Source of the DNA: Candidatus Thorarchaeota archaeon
GTDB taxonomy: Archaea > Asgardarchaeota > Thorarchaeia > Thorarchaeales > Thorarchaeaceae
DNA length: 36,499 bases
NCBI GenBank assembly: GCA_048884785.1
Contig: JBHLQM010000031.1
Coordinates: 1-36,499 of the forward strand
Reading direction: 5' to 3'
Position numbers and translations under genes: made by a program. Positions within the stretch are counted from its first letter, which is position 1, and each line of letters opens with the position of its first letter. Below the pieces are notes generated by a model. It did not search any database. It was not told the DNA's origin and was given only the letters and a program-made list of their open reading frames with translations. This document shows positions 24,180 to 31,713 of this stretch, piece by piece.

Positions 24180-25235
24180 TTATGGTTTGATTTCGGCCAA
24201 TATATCTCTTAATCTTGGTTCAGCTAGAATTGCATGTTGCAGTTTGCACAGAAGTTTAGTAACCTCAGCATATACTGCAGCTCTTGCAGGATCCGTGGAT
24301 GCCTCGGCGCTTTGAAGAGCCTCTTCAGACTGTTGGTTAATCCTCTTTATTAGTCGCTTTTCTAGTTCAGGACCGCCCCATCCAAAACCATCGAATGCAT
24401 TATGAGCCTCAGATATTTTATCCTCTGGATTTGGTAGCTTATCTGTAAGCACCCCCTCGAGTCCTTGGAAGTATTTGTGCACGGCTCGATTCACTCTCTC
24501 TGATTCTGATGCGTCCAGATAGTTCTCCTGAGCTCTTTTCAAAGAAAGGTCCTGCAGTAAACGTGCACCTGGGGCTTCGGTGAGGAGACCTTTGACAACC
24601 TTCGCCATGATTCGAGATGGAATCTCAATGACGTCCCCGATATACTGGGACTCAGACTGATACCTATGGATTTCCCTTATTACCTCAAGCCAGAATGTTG
24701 GCAAAAGCACATGACATCGCTGAGAATATTGCTCAATCAGGCGCTGTGTTTGGCCTATTATCCCCCACTCATCATTTTCCATCCCGACTTTTCGATAGGG
24801 TTCTTTGGGGACTTGAAGCTCGCCTTCAGCAATTGCAACAATTCGAGAATCGCCTGCTTGCGCCTGTTGAGTGTCAGATGTTCTTGTACGTCCTTCACCC
24901 TCAAGGAGAGAAAGAATTTCTTGAGCAGGTGTTGCTCTGGTCTCGGCCTTCTTGGCTTGTTCTGAGAGCTTTGGCAAAATGCTCTCTATCTGGGTGAGCC
25001 TTTTCACAATCAGGCTCAGGATGTTTGTTGTGGATTCCGGGATGCCCTCAGCCGTTGTAGCTTCCTCTATCCAAGACCTTGTCTTGATGAGCCCTTGAGT
25101 AAGAGAGTCAATACGGTCGGGATCGACATAACCCTCGACCTCTGAGCTGATTAGGAAATGTACTAGTGTTGAATTCAAAGCTACTATTAGGAGAAGCCTA
25201 TCAACGATATCTTCTGTCTTGAAGGGCTCTGTCAC
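24180..25235 (-). CDS. Hypothetical alpha-helical protein, third gene of the tubulin-like operon
   Basis: Long ORF with no recognisable motif. Likely start is GTG 25235, preceded by GAGGT overlapping the upstream TGA (the track start 25265 overlaps the upstream gene). Confidence 0.8.
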   Translation of the reverse strand: MTEPFKTEDIVDRLLLIVALNSTLVHFLISSEVEGYVDPDRIDSLTQGLIKTRSWIEEATTAEGIPESTTNILSLIVKRLTQIESILPKLSEQAKKAETRATPAQEILSLLEGEGRTRTSDTQQAQAGDSRIVAIAEGELQVPKEPYRKVGMENDEWGIIGQTQRLIEQYSQRCHVLLPTFWLEVIREIHRYQSESQYIGDVIEIPSRIMAKVVKGLLTEAPGARLLQDLSLKRAQENYLDASESERVNRAVHKYFQGLEGVLTDKLPNPEDKISEAHNAFDGFGWGGPELEKRLIKRINQQSEEALQSAEASTDPARAAVYAEVTKLLCKLQHAILAEPRLRDILAEIKP

Positions 25236-25239
25236 GACC

Positions 25240-26634
25240 TCACATCCCTGGCTGTATTTCTCCACCTGCGCCTGGTGTCATGTAGTAGCTGAAGAGTTCT
25301 CTGAAATCGGAAATAGCATCAACAAGCTCTTTTCTTTGTACTCCTTTCGAACGCATGAACCAGCTTTGCTTTAGCGGTGACGCGCCACTGTGAAGATTGA
25401 CAAGCTGAGTAGCTTCATTGATGATCTGGACCAGTTCGGGTATCTTAGGTAGACCCAGCAATACCAGAAGATTCACTTTTGGATCCTTTGTGAGATATTG
25501 AACGTAGCATGGCGTGATAGCTGCACCCGGAGCAATGAACTTGTCAAGTGCCTCTTTCAAATGCATGCCATATTCTGCCTTGCTGATATGTCGCGGTCCA
25601 GAAAGCACATAATATACTGATTCCGCATTTGGTTCATCTCCAACATCTGCATAGGACGATTCACGTACCGCATAGTCTATCATTGCTTTAAGCTGACGCG
25701 GCATGCTCCCTGCATCTGGAATTAGTCCCACATCTGTATAAAGTGCAGGAACAACAATTGGATCCAATTTCCTTGCATAATCAGCAAGGTCAGTGGTTGG
25801 AAAAACATCCTTGTGTGGCTCATAAACTCCTGGTGAGAGCATAGCTTCCACGACATCCAGTGCGAGAGGATTAACGAGTTCAACAAAAGCCTGTTCTGTT
25901 CTCGTTTCAAGCTCGCCTGCTTCATCAAGCGTTGAGGGGACCATCTTCTCTATTGAATCAATATCAGCAATATCGACTGACAATTCTCGTTGAAGATAGT
26001 CTACACTATCGGCACGTCTCGATTGCAGGATTCTCTTGAGCATGGTTCTGTTGCTTAGCAGAATCGTGAGGTCGGCTCCTCTCTCTTGGAGCTGTGCTCT
26101 TAGAAGCCTTGAAACCGCCCATATGGAGTTCAAAGCTTCGCTTGATTGCCCCTCGAAGGGGAGGATCCCAATCACATAGACAAAAATGCGGCGTCCTTCC
26201 TCCTCTTGGAACCTTTGCTTCAGAAGCTCGATGATTGCTGGAGTGCCACCGCATCCAGTACCACCACCAAGGCTTGTAAAAATGCAGAATCCTGAGACTC
26301 CCTCAAACCCGAGGTTGCTCAATTGGTCGAATATGATGTCTTTGGACTCGATAACAGCATTGTATCCATCCATGAACCTACCACCAACACCGATTTCACT
26401 TGCCCCATAGAGGAGTGTATGCTCCTTGGGGATTTCGTATTTTGAGCGCACCTTTGTCAGGTCTGCCCTGTCGGTGTTCATCAAGAGATAGCCTCTTACT
26501 CTTGAGGGCAACTTCTTGTCTATGCTTGCCTTCAAATAGGAACCCACTATATTTGACCCACACTCTCCAACGCCTATGGCAAAGACTTCTGCAGCCTTTG
26601 TTTCTTCTTCCCCTAATCTTGGTGGTCCACTCAT
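25240..26634 (-). CDS. Divergent tubulin/FtsZ-superfamily GTPase (CetZ/tubulin-like)
   Basis: IGVGECGSNI (T1), NTDRADL, GVGG (T3), signature SLGGGTGCGG (T4), ILPFEGQ (T5), LLSN (T6), TTDLADYARKLDP (T7), and C-terminal VNLLVLLG. ATG follows GGAGGAG. Confidence 0.92.
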   Translation of the reverse strand: MSGPPRLGEEETKAAEVFAIGVGECGSNIVGSYLKASIDKKLPSRVRGYLLMNTDRADLTKVRSKYEIPKEHTLLYGASEIGVGGRFMDGYNAVIESKDIIFDQLSNLGFEGVSGFCIFTSLGGGTGCGGTPAIIELLKQRFQEEEGRRIFVYVIGILPFEGQSSEALNSIWAVSRLLRAQLQERGADLTILLSNRTMLKRILQSRRADSVDYLQRELSVDIADIDSIEKMVPSTLDEAGELETRTEQAFVELVNPLALDVVEAMLSPGVYEPHKDVFPTTDLADYARKLDPIVVPALYTDVGLIPDAGSMPRQLKAMIDYAVRESSYADVGDEPNAESVYYVLSGPRHISKAEYGMHLKEALDKFIAPGAAITPCYVQYLTKDPKVNLLVLLGLPKIPELVQIINEATQLVNLHSGASPLKQSWFMRSKGVQRKELVDAISDFRELFSYYMTPGAGGEIQPGM

Positions 26635-26652: not shown

Positions 26653-29343
26653 TTATCCTCGTTTGCCGACCATTGACTGAGCAATCTCTCTGATTGCCCA
26701 TGTCAAATATGAGCTTATGTCTTCTCTACTATAAGTATCCTTGATTTTTCTGATTGCATCATCAAGGAATTTCTCTCGCTCATCTACTCCGGCAGCAGGA
26801 CTGAAACCGGTCATGAACATCTTCAAGGACTTATGCCAGTCGTCCATTTTCTCTGCCTTTTCAATCCATTCTTTTCTCATCTCTCTTAATTCATTATACG
26901 CCTCTAGAGCCTTGTCAAGTTGTTGTGCTGATGTCAGGTCCTTCTCTAGAGTGCCCATCTTCGATAAGTCATAGATGAGTTTACTGAAGTCCTTTGGATG
27001 CTTTCCAAAAACCCGTTCAATGGTTGAGTAGTATTGGCTTTTTTCACGTATCTCATTGTAATAATTCTCTGTATCCTTTGATGCAATGCTTTTGATAACT
27101 CCAAGCATTTCTTCTTGGACATTTGCCAAGGTTAGGCACACCTCGAGAGGTTCAGTGATATACTTGGATTCCTCCTGCATCTTGCTGGGAACTTGCTCTA
27201 GGAGCGATTTCAGACGCTTTACGAAGTCATCCATACCTTGATCCTCAAAAAGTGAAACCGCACCAAGGATTTGCCGATATGCATCGTCGCCGCGCTCTCT
27301 CACTCTATCTTGAATATCCTTTGAAGTAGTCAAGCCGGCCAGATGGTCAAATGAATCAGCAGCATCTTCCAACTCGACTGGAGGTTTGTCCATAACGGAT
27401 TTCAGAAGCTTTAGCTCCTTCTCCAGCGGCACTCCAATTGAGGCTGCTTTTGAGAATGAGGTGTGCAGATTCTTTGCTTCCTTTTGAAGTGACTCGATTA
27501 CCTTGCCAGTGATTTTCTTTTCATAGAGTTCTATCATTTTTCTTGCGATAGCTGGAAGGCTAAACACAGTTTCTGCAGCAACGCCAATGCTATTCAATTC
27601 TGCAATTGCATCTTGGACTTCCTTGGGTATTTCTGCTCCAGCTCCCATGAGTTTAGCTGCTGCTAGTCGGATTTTAACGCCCAACCTATATCGAAGATTT
27701 TCAAGCGCTTCTTTTGCCTTCGCAAGTATTGTTTCCTTAATTGTACGCATCTCAGAGCGAATCTCTGCGAAATCATCCATCTGCTTTATTCTATCAGCAC
27801 CTTCATCCAAATCGACAACGATGGGCATGAAGATTTCAGCGTAAGCTGGTTTTATTGTTTGAAGGTCTTCAATGATTGCATCAATCTCTTGTTTGCATGC
27901 TTCTCGAAATGTTGCAACTCCGCTTCCAACGGCAGTCCGGAGGCTCTCAAGTGATTGCAACAAATATACAATTCCTCCGCCCTCAAGTTCTTCCATTTTA
28001 GGTGCTTTCTTGCTCAGCTGCGCATAGTCAAGAACCCTGTCTGCTGAAGTGGCAAGTTCATTGAATCGTGCTAGGAAATCCTTAATGTGTTGCTTTACAA
28101 CTCTCTTATGCTCTTCATCCAATGCATTTGCTTTCACGTATACTTCGATCATCCCGTCAAGTTCGTTCTTCTCCAGATGGCGGCGGGATTGCTTCACAAA
28201 GTCCCTTATCGAACTAATATCGGTGATCCCAGTATCACTGGCGGCGTCTCCTGCCTTTTCTACATCATCAATTAACTCTTCGACCTTTCCCTTAAGAGAA
28301 ATCTTCACCTGTCCTTCCCATTCTACCATCTTCTGATATGATGACAACAAGCTGGGTACTTCTTGATTCTCGACAACAAGTGATGGAGCCTGAGGTATAA
28401 CGTCAGAAGTGGTTGGAATACCATTCTCGACGAATTTGGTCGTTGTTTCGTGCTTCATGTTGATGATTCTATCCTTCAACATATTTGCAACTTGAAGCTT
28501 AGATGCCTGCATTTGTGATTCGAGGCTAATTAGAGTTGTCAAATTCTCTGCACTGGATGCATCCCTTGCCAAAACTCGTAGTTTCTGACTGAAATCCATA
28601 GGAAGCTCAAGACCGAGTCTAACAGATGTTTCCACCCATGCCTGCAGGGATTCAATATCACTCATCAAAGAAACACCAAGCATGCGGCCAACTTCGCCTC
28701 TTCTTCCGTCAAGATACACCTTCTCTGCCTGAAGCTTATCATTGATTGAAATCAAATCTGCCGCAGAGAATCCTGATACATCTTCGTTTGAAACAGAGGT
28801 TGATACTTCTCCTCTATCTATCGTGACATGCCTTTCAAAAGTTTCAATGGTTCTTTTGTTTTCATCAAGAAGGTCTTTGACGGTCCTTGATAACTCATTC
28901 AGGAGCCCAGAGGACTTCTTAGAAAAAACATCTCCGAACTGGAACAGCTGTTCAAAATCTGACATGTCTCCTGCACCAATTGAAGGGAACGATACCGAGC
29001 CTAGTGCCTTTGCCTCTGCAGGCTTGAGTTCTTGCAGTTTAGGAACAGACGCCATTATGTCCCTATGTTCTCGTCTAAACAGCTCTGCGAAATCCCTTAC
29101 AATTCTCATAAACATGTCTTCAAGATCGTTGTTGATTTTCTCCAGCTGCGATTGAATCTTCCTCTTTTTCAAAACGCCAGATGCTCCAAGCTCATTCTCA
29201 GCCTTGGTAAATGTGGCAAAAACCTCATAGAGTTGGCGAACCTGATGGGATGTTTGCTCCTCAAGTCCTGGATTCAGGTTAACCAACATTCCTTTCATCT
29301 CTGAGAGGCGGTCGAGCTCGCGTCTCCACTTTTTGCTGTCCAA
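26653..29343 (-). CDS. Large alpha-helical/coiled-coil repeat protein (896 aa), first gene of the tubulin-like operon
   Basis: Rich in E/K/L/A/S with heptad-like helices and no Walker motifs. TTG start follows a strong GGAGGT SD. Ends 18 nt before the tubulin-like ATG. Confidence 0.88.
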   Translation of the reverse strand: MDSKKWRRELDRLSEMKGMLVNLNPGLEEQTSHQVRQLYEVFATFTKAENELGASGVLKKRKIQSQLEKINNDLEDMFMRIVRDFAELFRREHRDIMASVPKLQELKPAEAKALGSVSFPSIGAGDMSDFEQLFQFGDVFSKKSSGLLNELSRTVKDLLDENKRTIETFERHVTIDRGEVSTSVSNEDVSGFSAADLISINDKLQAEKVYLDGRRGEVGRMLGVSLMSDIESLQAWVETSVRLGLELPMDFSQKLRVLARDASSAENLTTLISLESQMQASKLQVANMLKDRIINMKHETTTKFVENGIPTTSDVIPQAPSLVVENQEVPSLLSSYQKMVEWEGQVKISLKGKVEELIDDVEKAGDAASDTGITDISSIRDFVKQSRRHLEKNELDGMIEVYVKANALDEEHKRVVKQHIKDFLARFNELATSADRVLDYAQLSKKAPKMEELEGGGIVYLLQSLESLRTAVGSGVATFREACKQEIDAIIEDLQTIKPAYAEIFMPIVVDLDEGADRIKQMDDFAEIRSEMRTIKETILAKAKEALENLRYRLGVKIRLAAAKLMGAGAEIPKEVQDAIAELNSIGVAAETVFSLPAIARKMIELYEKKITGKVIESLQKEAKNLHTSFSKAASIGVPLEKELKLLKSVMDKPPVELEDAADSFDHLAGLTTSKDIQDRVRERGDDAYRQILGAVSLFEDQGMDDFVKRLKSLLEQVPSKMQEESKYITEPLEVCLTLANVQEEMLGVIKSIASKDTENYYNEIREKSQYYSTIERVFGKHPKDFSKLIYDLSKMGTLEKDLTSAQQLDKALEAYNELREMRKEWIEKAEKMDDWHKSLKMFMTGFSPAAGVDEREKFLDDAIRKIKDTYSREDISSYLTWAIREIAQSMVGKRG

Positions 29344-29568: not shown

Positions 29569-31713
29569 GTGTCAATCTCTTCGGGAGGTACAGCGGAATC
29601 ACTACGTCTTCAGCATAGAATAGAAGCTGAATTTGGGAGCGACGTGGTATATATCAATCATGACGAGAAATATGTCTATGCCGCTTGTACCGACTTGAAA
29701 GTTAGGGTTTGGTCTAAGGATGAATGGCAGCTAATTGCCACCTTAGGTGATACTACCTCTCCTCCTCTTGCAGTTCATATTGATGATGAACATGTCTACG
29801 CAACATGTGAGAAACGAGTCTATGTCTGGACCAAGAACACATGGGGGATGATTGGCTGGTTTGAACTGACATACACAGCTGTAACTTCTACACTTCGAGG
29901 CGAGTATCTGTATGTTGGTGCAAAAGAAGGGCGTCTAGTATCAATAAAGAAAGACACTCATGATACTTCCAGTTGGCAGTTGTTCAAATCTGATATCACA
30001 CGTATTTGGGCTGATGGAGAGATAATCTGTACATCAACAAACAAGGATGAATCAGTGGTTTGGAAAATCGAGAAAAACACCGCTCCCTCAGAGATTGCGC
30101 GTCTTGACAAGAAGGACAAGGGTGCCCACATTACTGGCAACAATGCCTACATATTATCCGGATTGAATACATCTGAAATTAAAATGTGGGATAGAGTTGA
30201 TTGGTCTCGTATTAGGACACTGCAACCGGCAGGAAACAACGGTCTGGTATCTCTCTGGTCCAATAGTATATACCTAATATCTGCATCAAATACCTCCAGT
30301 ATTAGTATCTGGGATTTGAGAAAGGGAACTACCATCGGCACATTCAAAGTGAATGGATTCAAGATATTGCAGGTTCGTGCTGATAGCAAGTATGTCTTTC
30401 TGGCTACTACTGCTGGCATTAAGGTTCTTTCCCTGTCTATTGGAGGGCAGCAGCTCGATCTGAATGCAGATGAGAATTCTCTCTACGGAACTCAGGTATT
30501 GAGAACCTCTCCTTACGATGTGCTCGAGGTAGTTCTAGAGTTGCAGAAAAAGGGGGATCAGTTTCTTGATGAAGGAGAATATCATGAGGCTGTTTCTGAA
30601 TTCGAGCACGCTCTTCAACTATTGATTGATAACAACCAAGCACTTCTGGAAGTACCAAAAGAAAGGGAAAAAATCACAACTGAAATTAATGATCGACTGG
30701 GCCAATCCTTGCTGCGAGCCAAGATAGTAGAAATGCAGGAAATTGTTGATGAAATTGAATCCATCACGGATGAACTTGATCGTGAGGGGCGAACGAGTCG
30801 AGACGAAGAGTCTCTAGATAAGGTCTGGACTATGGCATCCCGTGCGATAAAGGAGAGTAGGGTTCTGGCTGAGGCTCAAGGTGGACACATACTTAGCTAT
30901 CAGCTTTCTCATGAATCTGACATTCTGGATTCCAGTCTTTCCAAGGCGAAGGAAAAGGTTGAGAAGTATAAAGAGAAAATTACCTATGCCCTAACGCTTA
31001 CTCAAAACATCCGAAGTGAGTGGCGGTGGTTAGAGCGAAAACGAACCTCTCTTGAAGACCGACTAGCGTTTTTGGAATCCGCAGTGAGGAAGCTTGAAAC
31101 ACGAATAAAGGAATCCTCTGCAGATGATGAAGTTCGGAATATTCTTGTCACAGCATTAAATGAGTACACACAGCTTAGAGATCAGATATCTCGGATTCTG
31201 GATGCAAGCACAAATGACTCGAAGGATGTTCTCCTGTCAAAGGATGAGGCAATCGCGGCTATTGAAGGGTTGCTTAATGTACTTCCAAAGCGTAGAAAAT
31301 CAATCGAAAAGATTAGTGATGATGCTGAAAGACATAGAGAGATGAATCAGTTAATAGAAGCACTTCAACAGGCGGTTGAAGCAGCTGAGCAACATAAGTT
31401 GAAAGACGAGGCTCTCAAGATCAACGCAGAAATGGCAACAATTCTTTTGAAAGATGAGGCCGAGGAACCTTCGATTACGTCAGAAACACCAAGGCTTGAA
31501 ACTGAATCTGAGCCACCCAAGGAGGAACCCCAAACGTCCAAAGAGGAACCTGTACTACCAAAGGTGGAGAAAGATGAGCAATCAGAAGAAAAACCAGCAA
31601 AGGTCCCAAAAAAGAAAGAGAGCAGCGCAAAGACTCCAAAACAGCCTTCGAAGAAGAAAACTAAACGAAAGAGATCCACAACGAAGAAATCTCCTCGCAA
31701 AAAGTCAAATTGA
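29569..31713 (+). CDS. WD40 beta-propeller + MIT/TPR-like helical bundle + coiled-coil + low-complexity Lys-rich tail
   Basis: Repeated WD-type blades (KVRVWS, RVYVWT, EIKMWD, SISIWD) in aa ~20-290. Then GDQFLDEGEYHEAVSEFEHAL, a long coiled-coil, a P/E-rich linker and KKKTKRKRSTTKKSPRKKSN. Confidence 0.88.
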   Translation: MSISSGGTAESLRLQHRIEAEFGSDVVYINHDEKYVYAACTDLKVRVWSKDEWQLIATLGDTTSPPLAVHIDDEHVYATCEKRVYVWTKNTWGMIGWFELTYTAVTSTLRGEYLYVGAKEGRLVSIKKDTHDTSSWQLFKSDITRIWADGEIICTSTNKDESVVWKIEKNTAPSEIARLDKKDKGAHITGNNAYILSGLNTSEIKMWDRVDWSRIRTLQPAGNNGLVSLWSNSIYLISASNTSSISIWDLRKGTTIGTFKVNGFKILQVRADSKYVFLATTAGIKVLSLSIGGQQLDLNADENSLYGTQVLRTSPYDVLEVVLELQKKGDQFLDEGEYHEAVSEFEHALQLLIDNNQALLEVPKEREKITTEINDRLGQSLLRAKIVEMQEIVDEIESITDELDREGRTSRDEESLDKVWTMASRAIKESRVLAEAQGGHILSYQLSHESDILDSSLSKAKEKVEKYKEKITYALTLTQNIRSEWRWLERKRTSLEDRLAFLESAVRKLETRIKESSADDEVRNILVTALNEYTQLRDQISRILDASTNDSKDVLLSKDEAIAAIEGLLNVLPKRRKSIEKISDDAERHREMNQLIEALQQAVEAAEQHKLKDEALKINAEMATILLKDEAEEPSITSETPRLETESEPPKEEPQTSKEEPVLPKVEKDEQSEEKPAKVPKKKESSAKTPKQPSKKKTKRKRSTTKKSPRKKSN

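Follow-up and report, generated by a model that had tools for sequence, protein, structure and literature searches.

To which branch of the tubulin/FtsZ superfamily does an archaeal GTPase belong when its motifs look partly like FtsZ and partly like tubulin, and what might it do in a cell that already has two FtsZs? The question is raised by a gene for a protein of 464 amino acids (aa) on contig JBHLQM010000031.1 of Candidatus Thorarchaeota archaeon (assembly GCA_048884785.1), of which we analyzed positions 1 to 36,499, hereafter the window. A preliminary description had presented the protein as a distinct subfamily with hybrid FtsZ/tubulin motifs and a ~40-aa acidic insertion, informative on tubulin origins. 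Sequence comparison identifies it as the Thorarchaeal orthologue of Asg.Tub, an Asgard-restricted group already named in 2023, and Asg.Tub is neither FtsZ, nor CetZ proper, nor true tubulin. The Thor protein is probably a GTP-dependent filament former with a non-division role that acts with two operon partners.

25240..26634, minus strand: Asg.Tub gene, coding for a tubulin/FtsZ-superfamily GTPase of 464 aa (evidence from the open reading frame [ORF], Pfam, an AlphaFold2 [AF2] model and a published alignment).

The N-terminal GTPase domain was recognized by the Pfam family PF00091 (Tubulin; 72.4 bits for a cut-off of 33 bits, aa 16-200), and 151 relatives of the protein were found among 5.8 billion proteins searched. 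Their named sources were Thorarchaeota (85-92% identity), 'Promethearchaeota', Hodarchaeales/Heimdallarchaeota (~53%), Asgardarchaeia (56%) and Hermodarchaeota. Homologues at 48-92% identity came from Asgard bins only (Thor, Hod/Heimdall, Asgardarchaeia, Hermod, Baldr and Odin-labelled), save for a few odd labels; non-Asgard bin names (Thermofilum, Bathyarchaeota) were carried by a few members of the Baldr/Odin cluster. An exhaustive HMMER search of 1.84 billion cluster representatives yielded only two full-length 50%-identity clusters clearly of the Asg.Tub family. Cluster P0121, 44% identical to the 464-aa protein, is composed mainly of Baldrarchaeia and Odin-labelled bins. Next in the ranking after the family clusters came P0126 (32% identity), and then weak matches to the N-domain only.

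The name 'Asg.Tub' was given to the group by Santana-Molina, del Saz-Navarro & Devos (2023, Front Microbiol, PMC9871819). Their supplementary C-terminal alignment includes Thorarchaeales SMTZ1-83 and AB-25, Heimdall LC-3, and B3-JM-08. The two Thor sequences are near-identical to the 464-aa protein, the LC-3 sequence is our P0114 and is 50-51% identical to it, and the motifs VNPLAL, PTTDLADYARKLDP, GLPKIPEL and WF.RSKG are common to the published alignment and the protein studied here. The shared motifs and the near-identical Thor sequences make the gene an orthologue of the published family; the subfamily proposed in the preliminary description is therefore distinct but not new. In the available part of PMC9871819 we found no experiment on Asg.Tub, and no mention of the insertion between helices H6 and H7, the invariant signature Cys, the three-helix C terminus or the strict co-occurrence with a partner gene that are described below. 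A CetZ-like protein discussed in an ESCRT paper turned out to be haloarchaeal, hence irrelevant to Asg.Tub, and was set aside.

The genome holds three tubulin-superfamily genes, namely two true FtsZs and the Asg.Tub gene. Against the NCBIfam FtsZ equivalog TIGR00065, the Asg.Tub protein reached 34.9 bits, far below the cut-off of 295.2, whereas the two FtsZs, encoded elsewhere in the genome, scored 413 and 418 bits. Asg.Tub and FtsZ share an NTD motif, LPF in T5 and the pair of T7 aspartates, but Asg.Tub gave no match to FtsZ_C at E values up to 1, has Asn instead of Asp in H7, and ends in three predicted helices and a variable 15-aa tail, not in a long disordered linker with a terminal peptide. 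The Tubulin_C domain (PF03953) was likewise without a match in the protein at E values up to 1, or anywhere in the genome at 1e-5; Tubulin_C-type matches occurred in 8 of 400 surveyed Asgard genomes.

Predictions of the fold were made with AF2 from a family alignment of 19 sequences, which also served to read motif conservation. The model (predicted local distance difference test [pLDDT] 81, predicted template modelling score [pTM] 0.83) has two domains joined by H7, and it aligned with CetZ, OdinTubulin and tubulins over 324-367 residues at root-mean-square deviations (rmsd) of 2.6-3.4. The top DALI-scale score was obtained with OdinTubulin (7EVB; Z 36.0, rmsd 2.6, 364 residues aligned), next to the CetZ of Methanosaeta thermophila (Z 35.5, 327 aligned), CetZ2 (Z 35.2) and CetZ1 (Z 35.0) of Haloferax volcanii, and β-tubulin, BtubA and AtubB (Z ~35). 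This structure-based alignment thus left OdinTubulin, CetZ and tubulins tied at Z 35-36, and no FtsZ appeared among the 50 best matches of either structural ranking.

Could Asg.Tub be an ordinary, divergent CetZ, i.e., a euryarchaeal-type cell-shape protein whose loops are lineage-specific? CetZs (4B46, 4B45, 3ZID) are its best sequence matches among solved structures. The single sequence matched CetZ1 at E 4e-9 (aa 19-163 only), and the family profile matched CetZ1 (6e-12), M. thermophila CetZ (6e-8) and CetZ2 (8e-7) ahead of OdinTubulin (3e-5), followed by AtubA, Btub and γ-tubulin. CetZ has the same fold and a similar mix of FtsZ and tubulin motifs, and it too is an extra paralogue beside FtsZ1 and FtsZ2; one Asg.Tub family member is annotated 'Tubulin-like protein CetZ', and Santana-Molina et al. 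(PMC9871819) put the group closer to CetZ than to tubulin. However, every family-profile match to a PDB structure was confined to the N-domain (aa 14-163 in the case of CetZ), whereas true CetZ and CetZ-like proteins matched CetZ1 over their full length (365-370 residues; 3e-113 and 4e-41), and matched FtsZ at 1e-16 as well. The C-domain of Asg.Tub was unrecognizable by sequence, 35-45 additional residues lie between T6 and T7, two further C-terminal helices extend beyond the CetZ alignments, and the signature residue is Cys, not Ser. Asg.Tub is found in Asgard archaea, not in Euryarchaeota, and in a gene context unrelated to that of CetZ. In a maximum-likelihood tree of 37 sequences (LG+C20+F+G4), a quick search with small sampling for which the only supports are from the Shimodaira-Hasegawa-like approximate likelihood ratio test (SH-aLRT), Asg.Tub formed a clade (99), as did Asg.Tub plus its sister P0126 (99), and the CetZ-like cluster (90) excluded the family. 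Brown & Duggin (2023) also count Asgard archaea among the lineages with 'non-canonical' tubulin-superfamily proteins outside the CetZ boundary. These are thus not ordinary CetZ variants with an unconserved insert: Asg.Tub appears to stand apart from CetZ, and all 21 members analyzed have the insertion; we regard a divergent CetZ as rather unlikely.

The opposite assignment would make Asg.Tub a stem-tubulin on the branch to Asgard and eukaryotic tubulins, with helices resembling H11 and H12 and a Cys-containing T1 loop as ancestral features. The structural alignments with tubulins, OdinTubulin, BtubA and AtubB, which cover 361-367 residues up to aa 455-458 at Z 35-36, would fit such a position, as would the large tree of PMC9871819, in which Asg.Tub is basal to tubulins, and the finding of no Asg.Tub family among the eight tubulin-bearing genomes. 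Yet Asg.Tub has no Tubulin_C match and only ~16% identity to the structurally best-matching tubulins (OdinTubulin, AtubA/B [9F6T/9HXC] and BtubA/B), it occurs in other Asgard lineages, and its sequence scores to tubulins (~25 bits) are below that to CetZ1 (48 bits). Its NTD, LPF and T7 D-x-x-D motifs are FtsZ/CetZ-like, and a profile of its C-terminal 65 residues retrieved no tubulin from the PDB. The tubulin clade (SH-aLRT 100) excluded it in our tree, and the authors who named the group argue from indels against a tubulin affiliation. CetZ-like proteins, tubulins and Asg.Tub joined in a backbone polytomy, in agreement with the published statement that the position of Asg.Tub is unstable (PMC9871819); the literature leans to an affinity with CetZ. 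A stem-tubulin is in our estimation quite unlikely, and the suggestion that the gene is informative on tubulin origins is doubtful.

Asg.Tub being a group of its own, do its sequences retain what a polymerizing GTPase needs? All motif strings on which the preliminary description had based its hybrid FtsZ/tubulin reading are present in the ORF (GECGSNI, aa 23-29; NTD, aa 53-55; GGGTGCG, aa 123-129; PFEG, aa 159-162; and TTDLADYARKLDP, aa 280-292), and many positions of T1, T4 and T7 are invariant or at least 90% conserved in the 19-sequence alignment. The elements of the nucleotide site are as follows.

26551..26574, minus strand: T1 loop GVGECGSN (G21-N28); invariant residues G21, G23, E24, G26 and N28, with C25 conserved to at least 90%.
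26245..26268, minus strand: T4 signature GGGTGCGG (aa 123-130), with Cys at the usual Ser/Thr position; C128 is invariant in the family.
25828..25914, minus strand: core helix H7 (aa 241-269), a helix in the model; N255 and P256 are invariant.
25762..25800, minus strand: T7 loop and beginning of H8, PTTDLADYARKLD (aa 279-291), which contains the catalytic acidic pair; T281, D282, D285, L290 and D291 are invariant.

Further invariant positions are G82, G84 and G85 in T3, G123-G125, G127, C128, G129 and G130 in T4, and N195 in T6. The T1 string had been called tubulin-like; GECGSN is indeed there, but its GECG motif is not confined to the family, with GECGNR in the CetZ-like protein P0136 and GQCGN in M. 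thermophila CetZ. At this place the genome's own FtsZs have GGAGNN, CetZ-like proteins GQAGGK, GQCGNR or GECGNR, and Asgard tubulins GQGGNQ or GQAGNQ. In T4, GGGTGTG of the own FtsZs and GGGTGSG of CetZ-like proteins and Asgard tubulins correspond to GGGTGCG of Asg.Tub, so that the noted replacement of Ser/Thr by Cys is borne out; outside the family, the signature Cys was seen only in the outliers P0126 and P0133. The column aligned to N255 of H7 is Asp in the own FtsZs and Asn in both CetZ-like proteins and Asg.Tub. By these comparisons, the hybrid look of the motifs is real but typical of a CetZ-like grey zone, and the unusual point among them is the invariant signature Cys. Two conserved cysteines lie in phosphate-binding loops, C25 in T1 (26560-26562) and C128 in T4 (26251-26253); a redox switch is conceivable.

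The T7 loop keeps its acidic catalytic residues, as had been proposed: neither D282 nor D285 varies in the family, and both align with the Asp pair of the N-x-D-F/Y-A-D motif in T7 of the own FtsZs. Mainly because of this alignment, polymerization-dependent GTP hydrolysis would be expected. The GTP-binding loops are invariant, as are the signature Cys and the two T7 aspartates, which points to a polymerizing GTPase. Asg.Tub could instead have retained the tubulin fold as a regulatory subunit or as a GTPase that does not polymerize, but this is highly unlikely: although a large insertion near H6-H7 and an unusual signature Cys might disturb canonical longitudinal contacts, neither the T7 acidic pair nor any nucleotide loop varies from Thor to Baldr (44-92% identity), a pattern expected if activity needs contact between subunits, and the tree shows no rate acceleration within Asg.Tub.

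What sets Asg.Tub apart in the body of the protein is the insertion.

25894..26019, minus strand: family-specific insertion between H6 and H7 (aa 206-247; T6-T7 span, alignment and AF2 model).

The 44-residue stretch originally singled out extends from S205 to Q248 (nucleotides [nt] about 25891-26022). The span from T6 N195 to T7 D282 is 78-90 aa in five Asg.Tub members, as opposed to 44 in both own FtsZs and 44-47 in most CetZ-like representatives, three of which have 60-61. Among 21 non-redundant members, all have the insertion, with lengths of 31-44 aa. The first half of the insertion is conserved to a moderate degree (mean 0.53), with L214 invariant and D221 at 90% or more, and the second half, which contains gaps, is less conserved than any other internal part of the protein (0.41). 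The acidity that had been attributed to it does not hold across the family, since the net charge runs from -7 in the 464-aa Thor protein to +3; on these alignments, the insertion itself is a family hallmark and its acidity a Thorarchaeal trait. It had been placed between T6 and H7, and the model refines this, setting it between H6 (195-205) and the long H7 (241-269) instead of directly after T6, with predicted helices at 208-218 and 225-229 (pLDDT 62-68) and a disordered loop at 230-240 (pLDDT ~49). H6 and the loop between H6 and H7 are situated, in tubulin, close to the luminal face and the plus-end longitudinal interface. The new interaction surface that had been suggested is, for this family-specific and half-variable element, a candidate only. 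The lone sister lineage P0126, a 457-aa protein from a Logan metagenome contig, has the GGTGCG Cys and the VNP...DYANKLDP motifs, as in Asg.Tub, and lacks most of the insertion (T6-T7 span, 61 aa); it could show a pre-insertion state.

The second family-specific region is at the C terminus, where extra helices and the absence of an FtsZ-type tail had been anticipated, correctly according to the model.

25288..25440, minus strand: three H11/H12-like helices at the C terminus (aa 399-449), which follow the last strand; in the model they span 399-414, 420-430 and 434-449 (pLDDT 84-89).

W425, F426, K430, G431, A440 and L447 are invariant in this region, and only residues 450-464 form a variable, low-confidence tail. 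Structural alignments run through these helices to residues 455-458 with tubulins and end at 413-423 with CetZ. The likeness to tubulin H11-H12 nevertheless appears to be structural only: the profile of the C-terminal 65 residues had as its best PDB match a short stretch of the small subunit of an Fe-hydrogenase, which was not significant (E 0.085). A resemblance of W-F-x3-K-G...A...L-F in Asg.Tub to W-Y-x2-E-G-M...E-A...L of tubulin H11-H12 was dropped for lack of a tubulin match to that profile.

The genetic context offers clues to function. The Asg.Tub gene lies between two close neighbours, all three genes being on the minus strand.

26653..29343, minus strand: upstream operon gene, coding for an 896-aa acidic protein; its stop lies 18 nt before the GTPase start.
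24180..25265, minus strand: downstream operon gene, an ORF for a helical protein of 351-361 aa; start at 25265 (GTG, overlapping) or 25235.

The start of the downstream gene is ambiguous: the GTG at 25265 gives 361 aa and a 26-nt overlap with the GTPase gene, and the database copy of the protein, P0209, has 351 aa, its start at 25235 lying 4 nt beyond the stop of the GTPase gene. None of the three operon proteins has a membrane-spanning segment, the maximum hydropathy over 19 residues being 1.2-1.7. The downstream protein was modelled with an all-alpha C-domain (residues 155-361, pLDDT >90). The model gave no Foldseek match at E values up to 0.001, and a wide VIA structural search, by which the C-domain was barely tested, returned helical-hairpin matches to the N-terminal part only, at Z values of at most 8.8 that amount to helical background. 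A complex prediction of Asg.Tub (aa 14-452) with the downstream C-domain (aa 150-361), each entered as an alignment, returned no answer (score 0.00) and is no evidence either way. Coiled-coil genes of no assigned function adjoin archaeal tubulin-like genes according to PMC9871819. Divergent from the operon, positions 29569-31713 of the plus strand encode a 714-aa protein with an N-terminal WD40 beta-propeller (weak Pfam matches, none of which reaches its curated cut-off); in the six other loci that we compared, the operon has no annotated WD40 neighbour.

The comparison covered seven loci from different Asgard classes, the window plus Heimdall/Hod, Asgardarchaeia, LC-3 and others. In all seven, the gene immediately upstream of Asg.Tub codes for a homologue of the large protein (E 2e-120 to 4e-15), and in six the gene immediately downstream codes for a homologue of the small one (E 1e-39 to 2e-13). 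Of note for the surroundings, an Arf-family gene is also found near the operon in two loci (L001 and L002).

The association was surveyed in 400 Asgard species genomes. Asg.Tub was found in 124, including 74 of the 85 genomes of the window's own family and 20 of 22, 15 of 19, 5 of 5 and 4 of 4 in four others; it was absent from the 135 genomes of family f22 and the 31 of f8. The small partner occurred in 123 genomes, in exactly the same families. Both genes were present in 120 of the 127 genomes with at least one of them and neither in 273, and the 4 and 3 genomes with one gene alone are all incomplete drafts. Where both were listed, they were usually adjacent on one contig. This is the pattern of one inherited module, the kinship of the genomes notwithstanding. 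Eight genomes of family f11 (G057, G061, G067, G068, G072, G073, G074 and G077) have two Asg.Tub paralogues (~775 and ~700 bits) and one small partner, which adjoins the higher-scoring paralogue in the four genomes compared, a hint at a heteromeric or specialized second filament protein. Tubulin_C-type tubulins (eight genomes, in f10, f21, f28 and f29) never occurred in the same family as Asg.Tub (124 genomes, nine other families), which may be due to chance given the few tubulin genomes.

How might such a protein work? Given its invariant T1, T3, T4 and T6 residues, H7 Asn and T7 acidic pair, Asg.Tub would bind GTP and assemble head-to-tail into protofilaments, in which the T7 loop of one subunit would complete the GTPase site of the following one, in the manner of every superfamily member that has been studied. 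As the genome has two bona fide FtsZs for division, a cytoskeletal task other than division, similar to that of CetZ, is the most likely role of the third paralogue. The ~900-aa upstream protein, rod-like, and the ~350-aa downstream protein, both helical and Asgard-only, may be filament-associated partners that serve as scaffold, anchor or regulator. The H6-H7 insertion and the H11/H12-like helices would then most likely provide family-specific surfaces for lateral or partner contacts.

Several points weigh against this proposal. We infer polymerization only from conserved residues, and found no biochemical or structural bench work on any Asg.Tub member in the literature. Outside the family, sequence searches detected no relative of the C-terminal domain, whose function is therefore read from the model alone. 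The insertion, half variable and modelled with low confidence, would fit a tolerated loop as well as a binding surface. Neither neighbouring protein has a significant family in Pfam or NCBIfam, or a recognizable fold. The co-occurrence amounts to about nine observations at the level of family lineages, because related genomes are not independent. Lastly, the Hodarchaeales locus L009 (JGI 3300041085) keeps the large upstream protein and has no small partner adjoining Asg.Tub. At that locus, a 737-aa fusion with a small GTPase of the Arf/Gtr1_RagA type is found instead, on the opposite strand.

A wider version of the proposal is that Asg.Tub and its two helical neighbours form a self-contained three-component cytomotive filament system in Asgard lineages without Atub/Odin-type tubulins, the partners docking on the insertion and/or the H11/H12-like helices; this we put forward tentatively, as possible though on the unlikely side. 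What the present analysis adds to the named family is a set of figures for the insertion, the conservation of each motif and the co-occurrence with the partner gene. No known prokaryotes are more closely related to eukaryotes than the Asgard archaea, hence the interest in their cytoskeletal proteins, and in the genomes surveyed Asg.Tub (124/400) is more widespread than true tubulins (8/400), which makes it the commoner 'third' tubulin-fold protein of these organisms. If the three-component system is real, Asgard archaea would have independently equipped a tubulin-fold polymer with associated proteins of its own.

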